Positions 37,240-48,277 of a stretch of 64,000 nt of DNA are shown here, one piece after another. Each line of letters begins with the position of its first letter. The stretch's first letter is position 1. Source of the stretch: Escherichia coli. GTDB taxonomy: Bacteria; Pseudomonadota; Gammaproteobacteria; Enterobacterales; Enterobacteriaceae. The notes beneath the pieces were generated by a model. That model did not search any database. It worked only from the letters and a program-made list of their open reading frames with translations, and was not told the DNA's origin. The position numbers and the translations under genes are program-made. Location: the NCBI RefSeq assembly GCF_001677475.2, contig NZ_CP015229.1, one strand, 5' to 3'.

Positions 37240-37400
37240 CCTGCCATAACGTGAAGAAGCAATGACCTGGTGGTCCGTGACTTCCCTACGCTGGCATTAT
37301 CCAGATCAGGTGATACGGGTATTTCTCAGCCTTCACGCAGAAGGGCACCCCGAGTCGTTTGGTTGCGATGATAAATCGCAGAGGAGGATGGTAATGTCCA
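37240..37400 (-). promoter_or_regulatory. TPP (THI-box) riboswitch in the thiM leader
   Basis: Minus-strand sequence ...ggggtgcccttctgcgtgaaggctgagaaatacccgtatcacctgatctggataatgccagcgtagggaag... matches the thiM TPP aptamer (CUGAGA and conserved helices), at ~37281-37357. Confidence 0.85.
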
Positions 37401-37846: not shown

Positions 37847-38683
37847 ATGACCGAATTTACAACTCTTCTTCAGCAAGGAAACGCCTGGTTCTTCATCCCC
37901 AGCGCCATCTTACTTGGTGCGCTTCATGGCCTGGAACCAGGGCACTCAAAAACGATGATGGCGGCGTTTATCATCGCCATCAAAGGCACCATTAAACAGG
38001 CGGTGATGCTCGGACTGGCAGCAACTATTTCGCATACCGCAGTGGTCTGGTTGATTGCCTTTGGCGGGATGGTGATCAGCAAGCGTTTTACTGCTCAATC
38101 AGCAGAACCGTGGCTTCAGTTGATTTCCGCGGTGATCATTATTAGCACCGCGTTCTGGATGTTCTGGCGTACCTGGCGCGGCGAACGCAACTGGCTGGAG
38201 AATATGCACGGGCATGATCATGAGCATCATCACCATCATCACGAACATCATCAAGACCACGAACATCACCACGACCATGGACACCATCACGAACATGGCG
38301 AGTATCAGGATGCCCATGCACGAGCCCATGCCAATGACATTAAACGACGCTTTGATGGTAGAGAGGTCACCAACTGGCAAATTTTGTTATTTGGCTTAAC
38401 CGGTGGCCTTATCCCCTGCCCGGCAGCAATTACCGTGCTGTTGATTTGCATTCAGTTGAAAGCCCTGACACTGGGCGCAACACTGGTCGTCAGTTTCAGC
38501 ATTGGCCTGGCGTTAACGCTGGTCACCGTAGGCGTTGGCGCAGCAATCAGCGTTCAGCAGGTCGCAAAACGCTGGAGCGGATTTAACACTCTCGCTAAAC
38601 GCGCCCCCTATTTTTCCAGTCTGTTGATTGGCTTAGTTGGTGTGTATATGGGCGTACATGGCTTCATGGGCATAATGCGATAA
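37847..38683 (+). CDS. rcnA: Ni/Co efflux permease with His-rich loop
   Basis: 278-aa membrane ORF with extended His-rich loop HGHDHEHHHHHHEHHQDHEHHHDHGHHHEHGEYQDAH. Confidence 0.85.
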   Translation: MTEFTTLLQQGNAWFFIPSAILLGALHGLEPGHSKTMMAAFIIAIKGTIKQAVMLGLAATISHTAVVWLIAFGGMVISKRFTAQSAEPWLQLISAVIIISTAFWMFWRTWRGERNWLENMHGHDHEHHHHHHEHHQDHEHHHDHGHHHEHGEYQDAHARAHANDIKRRFDGREVTNWQILLFGLTGGLIPCPAAITVLLICIQLKALTLGATLVVSFSIGLALTLVTVGVGAAISVQQVAKRWSGFNTLAKRAPYFSSLLIGLVGVYMGVHGFMGIMR

Positions 38684-38901: not shown

Positions 38902-39240
38902 ATGACCATTAAAAATAAGATGTTGCTGGGTGCGCTTTTGCTGGTTACCAGTGCCGCCTGGGCCGCACCAGCCACCGCGGGTTCGACCAATACCTCGGGA
39001 ATTTCTAAGTATGAGTTAAGCAGTTTCATTGCTGACTTTAAGCATTTCAAACCAGGCGATACCGTCCCAGAGATGTACCGCACCGATGAGTACAACATTA
39101 AGCAGTGGCAGTTACGTAACCTGCCCGCGCCTGATGCCGGGACGCACTGGACCTATATGGGTGGCGCGTACGTGTTGATCAGCGACACCGACGGTAAAAT
39201 CATTAAAGCCTACGACGGTGAGATTTTTTATCATCGCTAA
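38902..39240 (+). CDS. rcnB: Periplasmic Ni/Co homeostasis protein
   Basis: Track ORF 38722..39240; ATG at 38902 gives 112 aa starting MTIKNKMLLGALLLVTSAAWA (signal peptide). Confidence 0.8.
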   Translation: MTIKNKMLLGALLLVTSAAWAAPATAGSTNTSGISKYELSSFIADFKHFKPGDTVPEMYRTDEYNIKQWQLRNLPAPDAGTHWTYMGGAYVLISDTDGKIIKAYDGEIFYHR

Positions 39241-39246
39241 AAAAAG

Positions 39247-39265
39247 CCCCCTCATCATGAGGGGG
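39247..39265. terminator. Palindromic hairpin between convergent rcnB and yehA
   Basis: ccccctcatcatgaggggg palindrome flanked by aaaaa upstream (T-run on the minus strand) and a T-rich stretch downstream. Confidence 0.5.
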
Positions 39266-39321
39266 AAATGCAGACACCTTGTTATTTTTTATTATTAGCC
39301 ACTTGCTCGTCTTGCTTGTTA

Positions 39322-40356
39322 TTAGTCGTATTTCACGTTGATTAATGCGGTTGCCTCCAGTGCGCCAGATTTAACTTTGTTTGTATCGTAGACGTAGTAA
39401 CTGGCTGTTATCGGAATTGAAACCGTTGTATCTGTAAGTTTTGACTTTGCCGCAATTTCTTTTAAATTTGTGTATCCTTTACTGCTGTTAGTGATATTTA
39501 AAAGTGTGACTGGCGAACCATTACTTTCAAGAATAAATCCTACGCCATTATCTTCCGCACCTTTCAGTATTGTGTTGCTGTTGGTTAACAAGTCAGAACT
39601 TGATAAATACACCTGCATTTTCCGTGATGTTTGATTTTGTTGACCTAATAAATTTTTACAACGCAGAATAATATCCCCTTTTTTACTATTTATTGTTGCT
39701 TTGTTACCTGTGGCTGGTAATTGTGAAACGGGAATACTGTCTAAAGTAATTAATAAATCGTCCGGTTTGCAGGTTGTGGTTATCGGGTTGTATGACAATG
39801 TCAGATTAAAGGAATAGACACCTGCATTTTGTGCCAATGCATTTCTGTAGCTATTTACACATGCATCCCATGACTTGCCACCTAATAAACACAGTAGAAA
39901 TTGTACTGCGGCACTCCCGCGTGTCGATGATGAAGCACTGGATAATGTCGCAACTCCATTAATCATCACTGAACCGCCGCCTCCCGCAGAAACATTTACT
40001 TTTGCATTACTGGACGCAGGTGTCACCGTTACCGAATAACCACTGGTGAAACTGGTCTGATTATTTGACAACGTGATGTTGTTTTTATTGGTCCATTCAA
40101 AATGTAAATTTAATTTAATGGTATCGTTATAAAGTCCAACAATAATATCCGACGGGCTCATAGGGGTGATAGTATTTGTACTCACGCATGACGAATCATT
40201 AAAATTATGCTCATAGGTCGCCATTTGTGTTTGAGTAAGTGCAAAATCCCCCTGAACAACCAAATTGTGCTGAACAGATAACTCACTATAACATGCCGCA
40301 TAGCTCACAGGCATAACCATCATCATTAATATAAATAGCATTATGCGAATTTCCAT
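39322..40356 (-). CDS. yehA: Fimbrial adhesin-like subunit
   Basis: 344-aa ORF with N-terminal signal peptide; last gene of a chaperone-usher cluster. Confidence 0.7.
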   Translation of the reverse strand: MEIRIMLFILMMMVMPVSYAACYSELSVQHNLVVQGDFALTQTQMATYEHNFNDSSCVSTNTITPMSPSDIIVGLYNDTIKLNLHFEWTNKNNITLSNNQTSFTSGYSVTVTPASSNAKVNVSAGGGGSVMINGVATLSSASSSTRGSAAVQFLLCLLGGKSWDACVNSYRNALAQNAGVYSFNLTLSYNPITTTCKPDDLLITLDSIPVSQLPATGNKATINSKKGDIILRCKNLLGQQNQTSRKMQVYLSSSDLLTNSNTILKGAEDNGVGFILESNGSPVTLLNITNSSKGYTNLKEIAAKSKLTDTTVSIPITASYYVYDTNKVKSGALEATALINVKYD

Positions 40357-40371
40357 AGAACCACCTGACTA

Positions 40372-42852
40372 TTACTGGCAAATATAATTTCTACTTTCAT
40401 CAATCTCTTTACCGAAGGTGATTGTGCATGAAAGTCCTTGTTGCTTATCAATTGCTACATTAACCGATGGCGGTACTTCATTGGTGCGAATAAATAACTG
40501 GCTTCCCTGGCCGACAACGCCAATATTATGACCATGGATATCATTGACTTCATAACCAAACGTTAATGGTTGACCATCCGCTCTTAACGCTTTTATAAAC
40601 CAGGGCTTGCGCTGATCGGTATCAAAATTAACCAGTACAACCGCGCCGCGAAAAGGGGCGGCAATTTTCCGGTTGCCACGTAATTCTGCTTCGCTATCGC
40701 TTTGCGACACATCCAGCATCAGGTGATTTTCCCGATAAGGTGTCATTCCGTCGTATACCACCACTCCATTATGGTTTGTTGTGCGATATTTTTGCCCATT
40801 GACATAAGCATCTTTAATTCCTGGCGCATTCATCACAGCAAACGTTTCGGAAAGACGGTTCGCCAGATTAACGCCACCCGACCAGGCGACAATGCCCCCT
40901 GAAACACTGGCTCCAGCCTGTCGATAAGTACTCGACTGACTATAACTGCCATTCACCGTTGCCACCGGCGCGTTCCAGGTTAAATTCGCTCCAGCTGTCG
41001 TTTCATTTCCCTGATGCTGATGACTCAGGTTGACCCCATAGTTAAATTGATCCCGGCTTCCAACGGTTCCCGATAATCCCGTATTATTTGAGGCAAAACC
41101 CTGATCATCAAACGTCGTTGAGTTAGACATATATATTTGCCGACGAGGCGTCGTAACGTCATCACCCCAATCAAAGGGAATCGATATAAAAATATTAAAA
41201 CGTTTCTCTTCATGATGATTCTCGTCATAAGCCTGGCTTGCCGCGAGGGTATAGCTTATCCGTCGCAGGTTGTTGGAATAACTCAACTGATAATCCTTAC
41301 TGCTGCCGCTACGCCCCCAGTAATCTCGCCATAACGTACTTAAGGACACAGAACCCCAGCCTTCTGGCAATGACTGGCTCATATTGGCAGAAAAGCTATT
41401 TTTACGGCCAAAATCGTTCTGGTAATAATCGGCAATGTCATAGATATCGTTTTCATCACGGCGATAATTATCTTTATTGTTTGCCCAAACGTGATCGTTA
41501 AATGTCCGGTAATCACGCGACGAATAACGCCAGGCCGCCAGACCAAAACGCGTCGACGTTTGGCTCACAAATTTGTTGTAGGCAATTTGATAACTTTGCC
41601 CGTCAAACACATCGCCGTTGTCTTGTTTACTATGCGACTTCGTGGCATCGACGGAAATGGCACCAATGCGTGTATTCCAGCCAGTCCCCAAAGTGAACGC
41701 GTAATAATTATTCGCGACCATCGATCCGCCATACAGCGTCAATAAGTTATTAAAACCATACTGATAACCCGCCTGGACAAAATCACTTTGTTTGCTCGCC
41801 CCTTCAATATGGCTACGACCCGCCGCAAAATCATATTTCGACACGCCAGGTTGCAGCATATTCGGCACCGCTGAATAAGGCACCAGATAGGTGGTTACCG
41901 AACCGTCCGCCTCTTTCACGCTGACATCAAGATCTGCTCCACCACCGGCCAACTGCAAATCTGTAATCGCAAACGGGCCAGGAGGAACCTCTTTCTGATA
42001 AACGACAAAACCATTCTGTTCAATAGTTACCAACGCGTTACTCTGAGCAATCCCCTGCACCCGTGGCGTAAAATTTTGTTTCGAGTTAGGCAACATCTGC
42101 ATATCACGAAACAACCGCACACCTCTGAAGCGAACAGAATCAAAAATATCGCTTGATGTATACATATCACCCACGCGAAGCGTGCCGAGAAGTTGGACAA
42201 ATCCACGTTCCAGATACAGGGTATTGCTTTTCCACACCCCTGGATTGTTATTTGTTTTACTGAAACTTGCATCAGAATGCAGTTGCCACCCCAGTAAATT
42301 TAACCCGCTGTTAAAACGTACATATGTACTCTTACTGTTACCCGACGCTTTATAGTCACTGTAATACTGACTCACATAATAAGAGGTATAAACCGCATTA
42401 ATACCCCGCTCCCAGTTTTCCGGTGGAACATAGCCACTTTCCAGTTCTTCCACCCAGGCCTGCGGGACACTGAAATCGAGACGAAAAACCCCGATATCCC
42501 AGGTATAGCTCCCACCCTGAACAAGTTGCTCAAATGTTAAACATTGCTTACCGCTGGCGAAGTTATCGCTATTAATGCCTAACCGCTTGATAACTTCTCT
42601 TGATAAACATGTTTCTTGCGGGTTGTCTTTAACAATAATCTCATATTTCCCGCGCCATTGCTTATTGACATAAATATCGATGTCATACTGCCCCGGCAAG
42701 GGTTGATTATCATCAAGACGAATATTTGCAACCTGCTGGTCTTTCATTCCACCTATCATAAAATGGGTATCAAAGGTTTCTTCAGCTGCATAAGCTTCAA
42801 TGCCGAGCAATAACGCTACGATTGCTGATGCAAGTGGGGTCATTCTCAACAT
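40372..42852 (-). CDS. yehB: Fimbrial outer-membrane usher
   Basis: Track ORF 40372..42867; ~826-831 aa, usher-sized with signal peptide. Start codon uncertain. Confidence 0.8.
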   Translation of the reverse strand: MLRMTPLASAIVALLLGIEAYAAEETFDTHFMIGGMKDQQVANIRLDDNQPLPGQYDIDIYVNKQWRGKYEIIVKDNPQETCLSREVIKRLGINSDNFASGKQCLTFEQLVQGGSYTWDIGVFRLDFSVPQAWVEELESGYVPPENWERGINAVYTSYYVSQYYSDYKASGNSKSTYVRFNSGLNLLGWQLHSDASFSKTNNNPGVWKSNTLYLERGFVQLLGTLRVGDMYTSSDIFDSVRFRGVRLFRDMQMLPNSKQNFTPRVQGIAQSNALVTIEQNGFVVYQKEVPPGPFAITDLQLAGGGADLDVSVKEADGSVTTYLVPYSAVPNMLQPGVSKYDFAAGRSHIEGASKQSDFVQAGYQYGFNNLLTLYGGSMVANNYYAFTLGTGWNTRIGAISVDATKSHSKQDNGDVFDGQSYQIAYNKFVSQTSTRFGLAAWRYSSRDYRTFNDHVWANNKDNYRRDENDIYDIADYYQNDFGRKNSFSANMSQSLPEGWGSVSLSTLWRDYWGRSGSSKDYQLSYSNNLRRISYTLAASQAYDENHHEEKRFNIFISIPFDWGDDVTTPRRQIYMSNSTTFDDQGFASNNTGLSGTVGSRDQFNYGVNLSHQHQGNETTAGANLTWNAPVATVNGSYSQSSTYRQAGASVSGGIVAWSGGVNLANRLSETFAVMNAPGIKDAYVNGQKYRTTNHNGVVVYDGMTPYRENHLMLDVSQSDSEAELRGNRKIAAPFRGAVVLVNFDTDQRKPWFIKALRADGQPLTFGYEVNDIHGHNIGVVGQGSQLFIRTNEVPPSVNVAIDKQQGLSCTITFGKEIDESRNYICQ

Positions 42853-42867
42853 AGGCAGCTCCTGCAA

Positions 42868-43542
42868 TTAAATTTTGTCACTAATATAGTTGCCGTGGTC
42901 ATCGATAATGGTCAGATACCAGTTATTTGCATTATTACTTTTGACATTAACACTCTGACTTTCTAAGGGGGCAATCATAATAGTTTCATAATTGACTTTG
43001 ATATTATTCGCTTTTACATCGGAAATCGTCACCCAGTTCGGCGAATCATTTTTTATCACCAGCCCATTGCCGCTACGATTTACCAGCAATTTCTTAAACG
43101 TTGCTTTATTAACCGGAGCAATACCCGCCGGTCGGTAAAACAATTTGATTCTGTTTTGCATCGCAAACTTCAGTGCATTCTTGCCTTCTTGTTCTGGACT
43201 ATTTGGTGGAATATCCAGAACATTAAGATAAAAAATGCTCTCTTTATTACTGGGCAACTTATTCGGCATGATTTTAATTTTTACTTGCTGTCCGGAGTTA
43301 GCCCCTATTTTTGCCACTGGTGGCGTTAGCATGAAAGGAACCTGAATCTTTTCCGGCGGCAGTGATGTGTCGCCATCATCAATCCACGCCTGAAGTAATG
43401 AAGATCGGTTTCCCTGATTCATCAACTGCACCATAACTTCTTTATTTTCTGCCGGGTAAATAATGCGCGTCCCGTAGATAACAATTCCGGCATGTGCAGG
43501 AAGGACTATAGAAAAAATGAGTAAAGATAATAATCCTTTCAT
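42868..43542 (-). CDS. yehC: Periplasmic fimbrial chaperone (PapD-like)
   Basis: 224-aa ORF with signal peptide, between usher and major subunit. Confidence 0.8.
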   Translation of the reverse strand: MKGLLSLLIFSIVLPAHAGIVIYGTRIIYPAENKEVMVQLMNQGNRSSLLQAWIDDGDTSLPPEKIQVPFMLTPPVAKIGANSGQQVKIKIMPNKLPSNKESIFYLNVLDIPPNSPEQEGKNALKFAMQNRIKLFYRPAGIAPVNKATFKKLLVNRSGNGLVIKNDSPNWVTISDVKANNIKVNYETIMIAPLESQSVNVKSNNANNWYLTIIDDHGNYISDKI

Positions 43543-43622
43543 CTTAATGCCTCTTAAATTAAAAAGCCGCCATGGGGATAGCGGCCATGTTTATTACCTG
43601 GAGAAACTTGCAATTTTATTTA

Positions 43623-44165
43623 TTAATCCTGCGCCACACGCATAACCAGAGAAGATAACACATCACCTGATTGCACTGAGTTATCTGTCAGTTTCAGGTA
43701 TTTTGCTTTAAACGGAATAGCATATTGACCTTCCGCTGTTTTATAACTCTCAATGTTAAAAGGTGCAGAAACATCCAGGACATCGCTGTTATCACCTAAA
43801 TAGAGATAGTACCCCACGGTATCGTTGCTACTGGCTATCGCCTTATCGTTTCCGGTTATTTTATCGTTGGTAATCAACGAGAGTTTCACACCAGCAACTT
43901 CTTTCGGACAGCTAATTTTTAACATGCTGCTGGTTACACCGACTGCATCATCATAGGTCGAGTATTTAGCTTTACCTTCAAAGACAGTGGTTGGTACAGT
44001 TGGCATATTAATACTTACTGAATCACCACCCGCTTCGAATTTACACGGAGATTCTGCAATATTCCCTTTAATAGTTAATGTTCCGGTATCAACGTCTGCA
44101 GCAAATACTCCAGCGCTCATAAAAAAAGAAGAAAAGACAGCGGCAGCAATAATTGAACGTTTCAT
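43623..44165 (-). CDS. yehD: Fimbrial major subunit-like protein
   Basis: 180-aa ORF with signal peptide MKRSIIAAAVFSSFFMSAGVFA and fimbrin-like C-terminus. Confidence 0.75.
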   Translation of the reverse strand: MKRSIIAAAVFSSFFMSAGVFAADVDTGTLTIKGNIAESPCKFEAGGDSVSINMPTVPTTVFEGKAKYSTYDDAVGVTSSMLKISCPKEVAGVKLSLITNDKITGNDKAIASSNDTVGYYLYLGDNSDVLDVSAPFNIESYKTAEGQYAIPFKAKYLKLTDNSVQSGDVLSSLVMRVAQD

Positions 44166-44458
44166 AATATGTTCCTTAATAAAATTTATTTTTGGTTGTT
44201 AAGAGTCTGTATCTCTTGGAAACAAATTTCTCACATCAAAAAAGTTGCCGCAATGTAAACATATTGTTTTATTGATTTAAAACAAATTAACCATTGCAAT
44301 ATAAATACAACAAATACTTAAGAGTATTAAATATTTATCGCATCTATTAATTAATGTAGATTTATGTAAATGGTATTGTTGATATCAATAAAAAAAGCCG
44401 AAATCATTTATATAAATGATTTCGGCTTTCTAAATGCAATTAAAACCAGGGTGGCAAA

Positions 44459-44740
44459 TTAATCGTAGCGATTTAACACGATTCGACGTTTGCTATCGCT
44501 ACCTGCAACAACCACTTCTGTCGTCACACCTTTGACTGGCGAAGAAACCTGATGACGGGTATCAACATCATACGTTAACTGACCACAATGCTGTTGAGGT
44601 TGACCATTAACCATAGCCATACTGCATGTTGGGGGACTGATCCTGCCATTAATCGTTAATGTGGCAGTCTGTGAAGAGAACGCGGGAGAAGCCATTCCAT
44701 AGGCAAGAAAAATAATTCCTGACAGCCAGTACTTATTCAT
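44459..44740 (-). CDS. yehE: Small secreted protein YehE
   Basis: 93-aa ORF with signal peptide, upstream of yehD on the same strand. Confidence 0.6.
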   Translation of the reverse strand: MNKYWLSGIIFLAYGMASPAFSSQTATLTINGRISPPTCSMAMVNGQPQQHCGQLTYDVDTRHQVSSPVKGVTTEVVVAGSDSKRRIVLNRYD

Positions 44741-44929
44741 TGAACGTTATCCCTGTAGTAAAGGTTATGCCTGGATAGAATGAGTGCATAACAAACTATA
44801 GCTGTACATCCACTACACAGCCACGAAGGATGATAATGAAGCATTGCCTGTACGATCAATCGACTTTATAGAGTTTCGGACGAAGGTCCGCAGAATATTC
44901 GCAGCATTAAATAAGTGTTCATTAATGCG

Positions 44930-44973
44930 GCAAAAACAAATACACCGCATCAATGTTACATCTCTGCGGTGTA
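44930..44973 (-). terminator. Rho-independent terminator downstream of apbC
   Basis: Stem tacaccgca/tgcggtgta (44941-44973) followed on the minus strand by a T-rich run (ttgtttttgcc). Confidence 0.5.
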
Positions 44974-45002
44974 TGAAAAACAACCAAAAAGGTTAATGCG
45001 CG

Positions 45003-46112
45003 TTAGACCGCGCGGAAGGAAATCTCGCCAGGAATGACTTCACCCTGCCAATAAAGCTGGGCAGCAACGCGGTCAGCCAGCTGGCGGTAGATAGCGGTAA
45101 ATTCGCTCTCCGGACGGCTGATAACCGTTGGCGTGCCTTTATCGAGATCTTCACGTAAGGAGATGTGTAACGGCATCTGCCCCAGCAACTGCGTGTGGTA
45201 TTTCTCGGCCAGTTTCTCTGCACCACCGGTACCGAAAATCGGTTCATGGTGACCACAGTTACTGCAAATGTGCACACTCATGTTCTCGACAATACCGAGC
45301 ACCGGAACCTCGACTTTCTCGAACATCACAATGCCTTTTTTCGCATCGATCAACGCGATGTCCTGCGGGGTGGTGACCACGACCGCACCAGTTACTGGAA
45401 TGTTTTGTGCCAGTGTCAATTGAATGTCACCGGTGCCTGGCGGCATATCAAGCACCAGATAGTCGAGATCCGGCCACAAGGTTTCCTGCAACATCTGCAT
45501 TAACGCCTTGCTCGCCATCGGACCACGCCACACCATCGCATTGTCGTCAGTGACCAGATAACCAATTGAATTGGTTGCCAGTCCATGAGACATAATCGGT
45601 GCCATATGGGTACCGTCCGGCGAAGTTGGACGCTGATTTTCTGCGCCCAGCATGGTGGGAATTGATGGGCCGTAGATATCGGCGTCCAGAATGCCGACTT
45701 TCGCCCCTTCCGCCGCCAGTGCCAGCGCCAGGTTTACCGCCGTGGAGGATTTACCCACGCCGCCTTTACCTGAGCTGACCGCAATGATGTTCTTCACGCC
45801 GTTAATTCCCGGCTGATTCTTCACGCGTTTTAAGGTGGCGATATTATGCGACAGTTTCCAGTCAATAGCTTTCGCCCCGGTGATACGCAGCAGTTCGGCG
45901 CTACATTGCTCTTTTAACTCTTCGAACGCGCTATGCCAGACGAATGGCATAACCAGTTCCACATGCAACGTGTCGTCCATCCAGGCGACATGGTGCAACG
46001 CTTTCAGCGTGGTGAGGTTATGCTTCAGGGTTGGGTGCTGAAAATTGGCCAGTGTCCCGGCGACCATTGCGCGCAAGGCTTCTGGTGATTTGGCCTGGGA
46101 TTGTTCGTTCAT
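45003..46112 (-). CDS. apbC: Fe-S cluster carrier P-loop ATPase (Mrp/ApbC)
   Basis: Track ORF 45003..46142; ATG at 46112 gives 369 aa starting MNEQSQAKSPEAL; Walker A VSSGKGGVGKSST and CxxC motif. Confidence 0.9.
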   Translation of the reverse strand: MNEQSQAKSPEALRAMVAGTLANFQHPTLKHNLTTLKALHHVAWMDDTLHVELVMPFVWHSAFEELKEQCSAELLRITGAKAIDWKLSHNIATLKRVKNQPGINGVKNIIAVSSGKGGVGKSSTAVNLALALAAEGAKVGILDADIYGPSIPTMLGAENQRPTSPDGTHMAPIMSHGLATNSIGYLVTDDNAMVWRGPMASKALMQMLQETLWPDLDYLVLDMPPGTGDIQLTLAQNIPVTGAVVVTTPQDIALIDAKKGIVMFEKVEVPVLGIVENMSVHICSNCGHHEPIFGTGGAEKLAEKYHTQLLGQMPLHISLREDLDKGTPTVISRPESEFTAIYRQLADRVAAQLYWQGEVIPGEISFRAV

Positions 46113-46243
46113 CCCGACTCCTTTTTTGTATAGATAAACCATCAGCTGATAGTTTACCTGAAGAATATAGAGAAGTACTTACTTAACATTTTCCCATTTG
46201 GTACTATCTAACCCCTTTTCACTATTAAGAAGTAATGCCTACT

Positions 46244-48277
46244 ATGACTCAAGTCGCGAAGAAAATTCTGGTGACGTGCGCACTGCCGTACGCTAACGGC
46301 TCAATCCACCTCGGCCATATGCTGGAGCACATCCAGGCTGATGTCTGGGTCCGTTACCAGCGAATGCGCGGCCACGAGGTCAACTTCATCTGCGCCGACG
46401 ATGCCCACGGCACACCGATCATGCTGAAAGCTCAGCAGCTTGGTATCACTCCGGAGCAGATGATTGGCGAAATGAGTCAGGAGCATCAGACTGATTTCGC
46501 AGGCTTTAACATCAGCTATGACAACTATCACTCAACGCACAGCGAAGAGAACCGCCAGTTGTCAGAACTTATTTATTCTCGCCTGAAAGAAAACGGTTTT
46601 ATTAAAAACCGCACCATCTCTCAGCTGTACGATCCGGAAAAAGGCATGTTCCTGCCGGACCGTTTTGTGAAAGGCACCTGCCCGAAATGTAAATCCCCGG
46701 ATCAATACGGCGATAACTGTGAAGTCTGCGGCGCGACCTACAGCCCGACTGAGCTGATCGAGCCTAAATCGGTGGTTTCTGGTGCTACGCCGGTAATGCG
46801 TGATTCTGAACACTTCTTCTTTGATCTGCCCTCTTTCAGCGAAATGCTGCAGGCATGGACCCGCAGCGGCGCGTTGCAGGAGCAAGTGGCAAACAAAATG
46901 CAGGAGTGGTTTGAATCTGGCCTGCAACAGTGGGATATCTCCCGCGATGCGCCGTACTTCGGTTTTGAAATTCCGAACGCACCGGGCAAATATTTCTACG
47001 TCTGGCTGGATGCGCCGATTGGCTACATGGGTTCTTTCAAGAATCTGTGCGACAAACGCGGCGACACCACCAGCTTCGATGAATACTGGAAGAAAGATTC
47101 CACCGCCGAGCTGTACCACTTCATCGGTAAAGATATCGTTTACTTCCACAGCCTGTTCTGGCCTGCCATGCTGGAAGGCAGCAACTTCCGCAAGCCGACC
47201 AACCTGTTTGTTCATGGCTATGTGACGGTGAACGGCGCGAAGATGTCCAAGTCTCGCGGCACCTTTATTAAAGCCAGCACCTGGCTGAATCATTTTGACG
47301 CTGACAGCCTGCGTTACTACTACACTGCGAAACTCTCTTCGCGCATTGATGATATCGATCTCAACCTGGAAGATTTCGTTCAGCGTGTGAATGCCGATAT
47401 CGTGAATAAAGTGGTTAACCTGGCCTCCCGTAACGCTGGCTTTATCAACAAGCGTTTTGACGGCGTGCTGGCAAGCGAACTGGCTGACCCGCAGTTGTAC
47501 AAAACCTTCACGGATGCCGCTGAAGTGATTGGTGAAGCATGGGAAAGCCGCGAATTTGGTAAAGCAGTGCGCGAAATTATGGCGCTGGCTGATCTGGCTA
47601 ACCGCTATGTCGATGAACAGGCTCCGTGGGTGGTGGCGAAACAGGAAGGCCGCGATGCCGACCTGCAGGCAATTTGTTCGATGGGCATCAACCTGTTCCG
47701 CGTGCTGATGACTTACCTGAAGCCGGTACTGCCGAAACTGACCGAGCGTGCAGAAGCATTCCTCAATACAGAACTGACCTGGCATGGTATCCAGCAACCG
47801 CTGCTGGCGCATAAAGTGAATCCGTTCAAGGCACTGTATAACCGTATCGATATGAAACAGGTGGAAGCACTGGTGGAAGCATCCAAAGAAGAAGTGAAAG
47901 CCACAGCCGCACCGGTAACTGGCCCACTGGCTGACGACCCGATTCAGGAAACCATCACCTTTGACGACTTCGCCAAAGTTGACCTGCGTGTGGCGCTGAT
48001 TGAAAACGCGGAGTTTGTTGAAGGCTCTGACAAACTGCTGCGTCTGACACTGGATCTCGGTGGTGAAAAGCGTAATGTCTTCTCAGGCATCCGTTCTGCT
48101 TATCCAGACCCACAGGCACTGATTGGTCGTCACACCATTATGGTGGCCAACCTGGCACCACGTAAAATGCGCTTCGGTATCTCCGAAGGCATGGTGATGG
48201 CTGCCGGTCCTGGCGGGAAAGATATCTTCCTGCTAAGCCCGGATGCCGGTGCTAAACCGGGTCATCAGGTGAAATAA
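46244..48277 (+). CDS. metG: Methionyl-tRNA synthetase
   Basis: Track ORF 46235..48277; ATG at 46244 gives 677 aa starting [19 protein letters not shown] with HIGH (HLGH) and KMSKS motifs. Confidence 0.95.

Follow-up and report, generated by a model that had tools for sequence, protein, structure and literature searches.

How many transcription units make up the yeh fimbrial locus of Escherichia, and to which gene does the hairpin in its AT-rich spacer belong? These questions are raised by a 64,000-nt stretch of Escherichia coli contig NZ_CP015229.1 (the window, in whose positions all coordinates are given), in which five minus-strand open reading frames (ORFs) from the window's ORF list, yehA, yehB, yehC, yehD, and yehE, occupy positions 39322 to 44740. 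An initial annotation of this DNA described a single five-gene yehABCDE operon and took a palindromic hairpin between yehE and yehD as typical of an H-NS-silenced, cryptic fimbrial promoter. All five genes lie where they had been placed, and their order and names match those in an annotated E. coli genome; the single operon and the role assigned to the hairpin were not borne out. Rather, the locus very probably comprises two adjacent, co-oriented yet separate transcription units, yehE and yehDCBA, of the known Yeh pilus locus (Stc type of Salmonella, gamma-4 clade, a placement taken from PMC12778044).

The evidence begins downstream of yehE (44459–44740, minus strand), where the palindrome that had been noted at about 44392–44430 is a perfect 18+18-nt inverted repeat at 44394–44429. 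The folding energy of the RNA is −22.9 kcal/mol (z = −6.9), a stability matched by none of 200 shuffled sequences. In the minus-strand (coding) orientation, the hairpin opens 27 nt past the stop codon of yehE, with seven T's directly after it, and it was the strongest terminator-like site of the locus in a consensus scan. We therefore predict that it is the intrinsic terminator of yehE (44385–44431, minus strand, with the hairpin at 44392–44431; 18-bp stem, 4-nt loop, T7 run) and not a promoter element. It resembles other Rho-independent terminators in combining a stable stem-loop with a U-run just past a stop codon and in the covariation of its stem, and it differs from them in the unusual length of its 18-bp, A/U-rich stem (5 G-C pairs), the loop-proximal half of which is invariant in sequence. 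Hairpin conservation was assessed in 11 loci from Escherichia, Salmonella, and Citrobacter. The position is kept in MOD1-EC7003, two more E. coli, Escherichia albertii, Escherichia sp. E1V33, and Escherichia whittamii, as well as in Salmonella enterica subsp. arizonae and Citrobacter youngae, and the hairpin is weaker or degenerate in Citrobacter sp. MGH106, where the gene order is unchanged. Across the 11 sequences, the stem columns pair in 96% of cells, compared to 84.6% in column shuffles, and sliding the partner by 1 to 3 columns reduces pairing to 35–51%. Changes on both sides occur in 5 of 16 pairs (15 cells), with compensatory stem variants such as GCCGAAATC, GCCTAAATC, GCCAAAATC, GCCTCTATC, and CCATATATC, and the observed covariation score was reached by 0 of 500 shuffles. 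G-U pairs, which are meaningful only at the RNA level, are present among the variants.

It could be argued that the palindrome is mainly a DNA element, serving as the site of a dimeric protein or as a cruciform, and not an RNA terminator. The repeat is indeed a perfect DNA palindrome, and its loop-proximal six base pairs per arm, ATCATT/AATGAT (44400–44423), are invariant in all three genera (Escherichia, Salmonella, and Citrobacter), in contrast to the freely covarying outer stem. The compensatory changes in that outer stem, however, preserve pairing and not sequence, the G-U pairs fit RNA only, the T-run is confined to the side of the coding strand, and a stop codon immediately precedes the hairpin, so that a role mainly at the DNA level appears very unlikely.

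The gene upstream of yehE, apbC (mrp), is predicted to have an intrinsic terminator hairpin of its own at 44940–44974 on the minus strand, which starts 29 nt past the apbC stop codon and is followed by UUUGUUUUUG. Its RNA folds at −22.6 kcal/mol (z = −3.9) with a U-run next to it, and the palindrome is kept in 11 of 11 aligned loci, some of which carry G-C to A-U changes on both arms. This putative terminator would insulate yehE from apbC transcription. Between it and yehE lies a candidate sigma-70 promoter, TTGATC-18-TATCAT (44830–44859, minus strand), which scored 9/12 in the consensus scan and occupies a conserved position in Citrobacter and Salmonella, reading TTGATC-18-TACAAT, TATAAT, or TACCAT there (judged by eye in alignment A7). 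The 100 nt upstream of the yehE start reach an identity of ~0.94 among the Escherichia loci, the locus maximum. The strongest evidence is the arrangement found in three loci of a more distant lineage (L011–L013): there, the DUF2574 gene, as the yehE family is designated, is divergent to a pilin-chaperone-usher-adhesin operon and has its own hairpin in a wholly different neighborhood, and therefore co-transcription with yehD is not required. yehE and yehD are co-oriented in 10 of the 11 lineage types examined. Previous work in enterohemorrhagic E. coli (EHEC) identified yehD as the first gene and reported a single transcript for the four-gene locus, with no mention of yehE (PMC11287998), and a structural study likewise described a minimal four-gene pilus operon in which yehE is not mentioned (PMC12778044). 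We predict that yehE is a transcription unit of its own, separate from yehDCBA; the co-transcription of yehE and yehD that would define a single yehEDCBA operon was not borne out, as far as sequence inference can tell. The TTGATC −35 element also contains a GATC (Dam) site (44854–44857), one of just two in 44100–45010, which is kept in Citrobacter and Salmonella. The best match in the locus to the CsrA consensus RUACARGGAUGU is CTACAGGGATAA at 44747–44758 on the minus strand, 7 nt upstream of the yehE ATG; its ACAGG core is kept in Citrobacter and Salmonella, and the motif search was not significant window-wide.

The assignment of the hairpin to yehE leaves the question of which part of the spacer serves yehD. 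The spacer (44166–44458) had been described as very AT-rich and about 290 bp long, and this description holds: it measures 293 bp at a GC content of 0.246, the lowest of any 293-bp stretch in the window, where 0.08% of such windows are as low, all of them overlapping the spacer, and where the next-lowest locus has a GC content of 0.317. Its conservation is sharply bipartite, as measured by mean pairwise identity in 8 Escherichia loci. The variable distal part (44320–44391, minus strand), the 72 bp past the terminator, has an identity of 0.634, the locus minimum, whereas the 154 bp adjoining yehD (44166–44319, minus strand) have an identity of 0.898 and outscore the coding sequences of both yehD (0.857) and yehE (0.835). 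We predict that these 154 bp are the functional control region of yehD, comprising the regulatory region and the 5′ leader of yehDCBA, and blocks within them are kept in Citrobacter, in Salmonella, and in the relocated loci L011 and L014. The most striking is a perfect, operator-like inverted repeat with an 8-6-8 layout, TTGTTTTA-AATCAA-TAAAACAA (44264–44285, no strand assigned). Its 16-nt core, TTAAATCAATAAAACA, was found with 0 to 2 mismatches in 14 of 18 loci and was absent from the orphan DUF2574 loci in the same 18-locus search. In each locus checked, the relocated divergent L011–L013 among them, the core sits 95–100 nt upstream of the pilin ATG. This fixed position and exact conservation go beyond the AT-richness of the spacer. 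The palindrome is followed by the conserved block GTTTACATTGCGGCAAC (44244–44260, minus strand), in which the TT[T/C]ACATTG...AAC columns are invariant in a 10-locus alignment (A8), then by TGTGAG-AATTT, and then by the ribosome-binding AAGGAA, the Shine-Dalgarno sequence of yehD (44172–44177, minus strand), in which AAGGA is invariant in A8 and which holds the sole GGA near the start codon. An RNA structure in the yehD leader was considered and rejected (RNAalifold, −4.4 kcal/mol with an unfavorable covariation term of +0.61), and the conserved blocks would therefore be DNA-level elements, that is, a promoter and one or more operators. The weak promoter candidates TTGTTT-16-TATGTT and TATATT (44298–44303) were set aside for insufficient conservation. 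In E. coli strain PSS-08-1, an IS1-family element lies inside the yehE-to-yehD segment (NZ_AP027676.1, 1710362–1711748; hit H24).

A bipartite spacer bears directly on whether yehE, yehD, yehC, yehB, and yehA might nonetheless form one operon, with the hairpin as a structural feature of an H-NS-silenced cryptic promoter. In most loci the five genes share both orientation and synteny, and the spacer is both AT-rich and H-NS-bound in K-12, as this explanation would have it. However, the hairpin is built as a complete terminator and its stem covaries at the RNA level, yehE and the operon are divergently oriented in L011–L013, the least conserved DNA sits between the hairpin and the conserved yehD-proximal block, and the literature defines a four-gene operon starting from yehD (PMC12778044, PMC11287998); a single five-gene operon is thus highly improbable. 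A more moderate alternative, which is a refinement compatible with two units, is that the hairpin is a leaky or conditional attenuator through which the yehE promoter gives a regulated share of yehDCBA transcription. The co-orientation of yehE and yehD in nearly all lineage types and the hint of an extra constraint in the invariant inner stem would fit such a role, and transcription reading into H-NS-bound DNA is a known way to relieve silencing. On the other hand, a perfect 18-bp stem followed by T7 predicts efficient termination, the divergent arrangement in L011 indicates that the operon works without upstream yehE transcription, and the hairpin of Citrobacter MGH106 is degenerate under the same gene order. 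We regard conditional read-through as a real, if minor, possibility.

With regard to silencing itself, the spacer between yehD and yehE in K-12 belongs to a set of 78 promoter islands; like promoter islands and H-NS-silenced fimbrial promoters such as the regions upstream of fimE/fimA, sfmA, and yadN, it has extreme AT content and is H-NS-bound, in the chromatin immunoprecipitation-microarray (ChIP-chip) data of Kahramanoglou and Oshima, and it has been associated with horizontally acquired genes (PMC3661553, Table 1). Unlike promoter islands and H-NS-silenced fimbrial promoters in general, half of this spacer is strongly conserved across genera and contains a palindrome at a fixed position, and therefore a generic AT-rich H-NS platform is not a sufficient explanation. 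The published occupancy in K-12 upholds one part of the proposal of an H-NS-silenced cryptic promoter, but in EHEC 86-24 the native promoter supports expression of all yeh genes (PMC11287998), and the description as cryptic is strain-dependent, holding in some strains only. In EHEC, CsrA also binds the 5′ untranslated region (UTR) of yeh in a GG-dependent manner, and ethanolamine raises YehD levels (PMC11287998). The AAGGAA at 44172–44177 is, to judge from the leader, the likely site of this CsrA binding; the CsrA motif derived by systematic evolution of ligands by exponential enrichment (SELEX), RUACARGGAUGU, could not be matched in the yehD 5′ UTR with up to 3 mismatches allowed, and with 93 matches window-wide against 112 expected, the motif search was uninformative. 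In K-12, BolA overexpression induces yehD and yehC, in Salmonella, deletion of ompR raises yehD, and in extraintestinal pathogenic E. coli, Yeh is not induced by human serum. The original study describing Yeh as cryptic but functional, Korea et al. 2010, is cited by others.

Two further stem-loops lie within and at the end of the predicted yehDCBA unit. The first (43565–43586, minus strand) is a terminator-like site between yehD and yehC, predicted to be an attenuator or an mRNA-stabilizing hairpin. A G+C-rich hairpin is present there in 11 of 11 loci with differing stem sequences, and a T-run follows it in E. coli-type loci only, and therefore an element of stability or attenuation is likelier than a strict terminator. 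In the pap and fim operons, stem-loops follow the major-subunit genes; the hairpin here is comparable to those in being conserved between the major-subunit and chaperone genes, and differs from them in being a bare stem-loop outside the E. coli-type loci. The second is the predicted operon terminator downstream of yehA (39247–39265, minus strand), where CCCCCTCATGATGAGGGGG is followed by CTTTTTTT between yehA and the convergent rcnB, and it is present in the orthologous E. coli and E. albertii loci. An Rfam scan of 39000–45300 at permissive thresholds returned generic hairpin noise only, far under the gathering scores.

Taken together, these features allow a model of the locus in which a monocistronic yehE, insulated by the apbC terminator, would be transcribed from its sigma-70-like promoter and end at the strong intrinsic terminator past its stop codon. 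The second unit, yehDCBA, would be driven from the 154-bp yehD-proximal spacer with its palindrome and invariant blocks, the stem-loop past yehD would probably raise the major-subunit message relative to that of the downstream genes, and transcription would end at a terminator shared with the convergent rcnB. H-NS may polymerize on the AT-rich spacer and keep yehDCBA low, a dimeric regulator may act at the conserved palindrome, and the yehE terminator would stop yehE transcription from entering the silenced promoter region. Several points weigh against this model. The starts and ends of transcripts at the locus are predicted here from sequence, and no yehD promoter scoring at least 9/12 was found on the coding strand in the conserved block by the consensus scan; by eye, alignment A8 offers just weak −35/−10 candidates for yehD, none conserved well enough. 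The published high-affinity H-NS nucleation motif, TCGATAAATT, is not enriched window-wide (78 matches compared to 66.8 ± 8.4 expected) and is matched in the spacer with 2 mismatches only, and no hns-dependent yeh expression has been reported in the accessible literature. In addition, the invariant inner stem of the yehE hairpin (ATCATT...AATGAT) represents more constraint than a terminator strictly needs, and intrinsic terminators can be leaky, so that some yehE read-through into yehD is possible.

The pilus genes themselves require little revision, as the locus is the already known Yeh chaperone-usher pilus operon together with an uncharacterized neighbor, yehE. The complete chaperone-usher set that had been proposed was confirmed by Pfam, NCBIfam, and comparison with the PDB, which together support all four classical components, namely a chaperone, an usher, a first-encoded major subunit, and a two-domain adhesin. 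YehC (42868–43542, minus strand), the PapD-like periplasmic chaperone, has both chaperone domains above their cut-offs (PF00345, 140.4 bits, 3.9e-41; PF02753, 36.2 bits, 7.7e-9). YehB (40372–42852, minus strand) is the outer membrane usher, 826 aa long when the RefSeq start is used (a TTG start gives the longest ORF, to 42867), with PapC_N, Usher, and PapC_C all above the Pfam cut-offs and an NCBIfam NF011763 score of 1750.8 bits against a cut-off of 933. The major subunit, YehD (43623–44165, minus strand), encoded by the first gene of its unit, matches PF00419 at 31.2 bits (cut-off, 25.6), and its best NCBIfam match is the 'fimbrial protein YehD' model at 112.7 bits, under the 136-bit cut-off of that model. 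In YehA (39322–40356, minus strand), the two-domain tip adhesin, the Pfam pilin domain is confined to residues 184–344, the NCBIfam equivalog NF011788 scores 688.6 bits against a cut-off of 395 bits, and residues 21–193 are identical at 172 of 173 positions to PDB 9N4G, the receptor-binding domain of the Yeh adhesin. The 'adhesin-like' gene of the initial annotation is therefore an adhesin gene, and that wording understated it: the receptor-binding domain of the Yeh tip adhesin has been solved and is reported to contribute to adherence to pectin (PMC12778044).

That structure was deposited under the name YehD (PMC12778044), because the convention in uropathogenic E. coli (UPEC) names the genes in transcription order. 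The K-12 yehDCBA genes thus correspond to UPEC yehABCD, the adhesin gene yehA being yehD in UPEC and the major-subunit gene yehD being yehA, and with the two sets of names running in reverse, confusion is likely. The present operon has the same four gene types in the same order as the E. coli Yeh operon and Salmonella stcABCD, in the same chromosomal position between apbC/metG and rcnB. It shows no structural difference from the known Yeh operon, although the window is just 97.6–97.9% identical to the nearest complete E. coli genome. Variation was seen elsewhere. In Escherichia sp. MOD1-EC7003 (L002:8863-9453) and E1V33 (L005:11826-12416), the adhesin gene at the corresponding chromosomal position is just 45–47% identical, in the C-terminal pilin domain only, and the usher in the same loci is 93–96% identical. 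This looks like allelic replacement of the adhesin, as judged from these identities, and the divergent adhesin may be that of the 'Yhl' sister pilus described in PMC12778044. Shigella flexneri has a 174-aa YehD variant without a Pfam Fimbrial match on record.

If yehE is transcribed on its own, what does it encode? The predicted product is an exported protein of 93 aa in the DUF2574 family, with a signal peptide like that of pilins and an N terminus resembling a donor strand; it matches PF10836 at 172.7 bits (cut-off, 27.5) over residues 1–93 of the 93-position profile. Family members share the signal peptide, a conserved TATLTI-G-x-V-x-x-PTC motif, a Cys-X12-Cys pair, and a C terminus, R-x-I-x-L-x-x-Y-D, that is invariant or nearly so and has a penultimate Tyr. 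When the YehE and YehD families were compared with hhalign, residues 1–42 aligned with residues 1–44 at 97% probability (E = 1.2e-10). This span covers the signal peptide together with the donor-strand segment and first cysteine; past YehE residue 42, no homology was detected by this profile alignment. The DUF2574 model in turn matches YehD residues 1–44 (E = 7.9e-4), and weak Pfam and NCBIfam cross-matches agree. PF00419 matched none of 18 YehE family members even at E values up to 10, and the mature protein of ~70 aa is about half a pilin domain, short of the complete ~140 aa. A profile search of 1.84 billion representative proteins returned 30 YehE clusters, nearly all of ~90 aa or fragments, among which there was no full-length pilin, and comparison of the YehE profile with the PDB gave chance-level matches only (E = 0.28 or worse). 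The AlphaFold model of YehE alone, from an 18-sequence alignment, was too poor for a fold search (pLDDT, 61; pTM, 0.31). Literature searches for the function of yehE or DUF2574 returned no functional account, just author-name noise and reference-list matches.

One could suppose from such limited similarity that yehE arose by duplication of a pilin gene and is now decaying, without any function at present. The pilin likeness is confined to the first 42 residues, and the evolutionary rate of yehE is about three times that of yehD and yehC, with a median dN/dS of 0.22 compared to 0.081 for yehD, 0.075 for yehC, and 0.012 for apbC. Some E. coli and Shigella lineages carry truncated or frameshifted forms, and there is an orphan copy without a pilus operon. 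Against this, dN/dS lies between 0.10 and 0.41 in 43 of 43 pairs, indicative of purifying selection, and the ORF is intact at ~90 aa in Escherichia, Citrobacter, Salmonella, and more distant lineages. The gene is carried by 5409 of 5426 complete E. coli genomes, and the promoter-like site, ribosome-binding region, terminator, and C-terminal motif are all conserved, which makes a functionless remnant unlikely. The truncations (51–55 aa) and internal frameshifts affect several E. coli lineages, including O104:H4, and, considered with the Shigella YehD variant, imply that both genes are lost in some pathovars (proteins P0197–P0283, P0036, P0039, and P0021). In the region of L016:1186-7000 (also L017 and L018), in a genome of ~6.2 Mb, the orphan DUF2574 homolog is 43% identical to YehE and has no adjacent pilus operon; the 5.8-kb stretch before it has no listed genes and almost no long ORFs and is possibly an rRNA operon. 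Two long, repetitive proteins, P0059 (1811 aa) and P0066 (774 aa), match the YehE profile from about position 9 to 48 in 10 to 11 stretches each, with repeated matches to residues 21–48, which suggests that the donor-strand-like motif may also serve as a repeat unit in large surface proteins.

YehE adjoins Yeh/Stc-type operons both in the syntenic loci and after relocation, and it is probably a functional exported protein, with an origin in the 5′ end of a pilin gene and a link to this pilus. It may act via its donor-strand-like end. In PapH, a pilus assembly terminator or adaptor subunit with a donor strand, there is a functional analogy: YehE carries a signal peptide, a TLTI-G-x-[IV] segment that is homologous to the N-terminal donor strand of YehD, and a C-terminal strand with the penultimate Tyr. 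It differs from PapH in its mature length of ~70 aa, in having no Fimbrial Pfam match, and in being encoded outside the operon. AlphaFold models from a shallow alignment gave no support for docking of YehE to YehC or YehD and are not decisive; in AlphaFold2 predictions of YehC-linker-YehE-linker-YehD(delta-Nte), paired by locus, YehE had a pLDDT of 25–46 and formed no N-terminal strand. It is tempting to speculate, as a long shot, that YehE is a minimal, periplasmic, donor-strand-bearing accessory of Yeh/Stc pili that fills the YehD acceptor groove with its pilin-like N-terminal strand, which would match YehD at the groove-facing positions, and caps, terminates, or throttles polymerization at a dose set by its own promoter, independently of the operon. 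If true, this would define a new class of half-pilin assembly regulator.

The wider setting of the locus is conventional. Its neighbors are rcnR-rcnA-rcnB and, at the opposite end, apbC-metG, and the operon genes have a GC content of 0.38–0.46, compared to 0.52–0.54 for the flanks and a window mean of 0.508. The segment 39000–45000 aligns to 5423 of the 5426 complete E. coli genomes at a best identity of just 97.6%, and the flanking apbC-metG segment (45003–48277) reaches 97.9% among the same genomes. Since the divergence of apbC-metG is similar to that of yeh, these values point to a lineage slightly outside sampled E. coli and not to an unusual yeh allele, and the window probably comes from Escherichia that, relative to the RefSeq sampling, sits on the border of E. 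coli or slightly beyond it. The loci compared with it were gathered for the yehE family from species-level genomes. Ordinary known features nearby include a thiamine pyrophosphate (TPP) riboswitch, which the annotation of the orthologous E. coli region places upstream of thiM (L001:779-875; window ~37260–37360) and the long His-rich loop in the product of rcnA (37847–38683).

The value of these results is mainly corrective: the hairpin would belong to yehE, and the control region of yehD would be the 154 bp beside that gene. They also provide modest leads. The palindrome fixed ~100 nt upstream of the pilin gene, in all Yeh/Stc-type loci examined, points to a dedicated regulator, and the YehE family, with its pilin donor-strand end, is present in nearly all E. 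coli and stays by the pilus after relocation in one lineage. As Yeh pili have been reported to be relevant to gut colonization, adherence to pectin, and virulence gene expression in EHEC, how they are switched on is of some practical interest.

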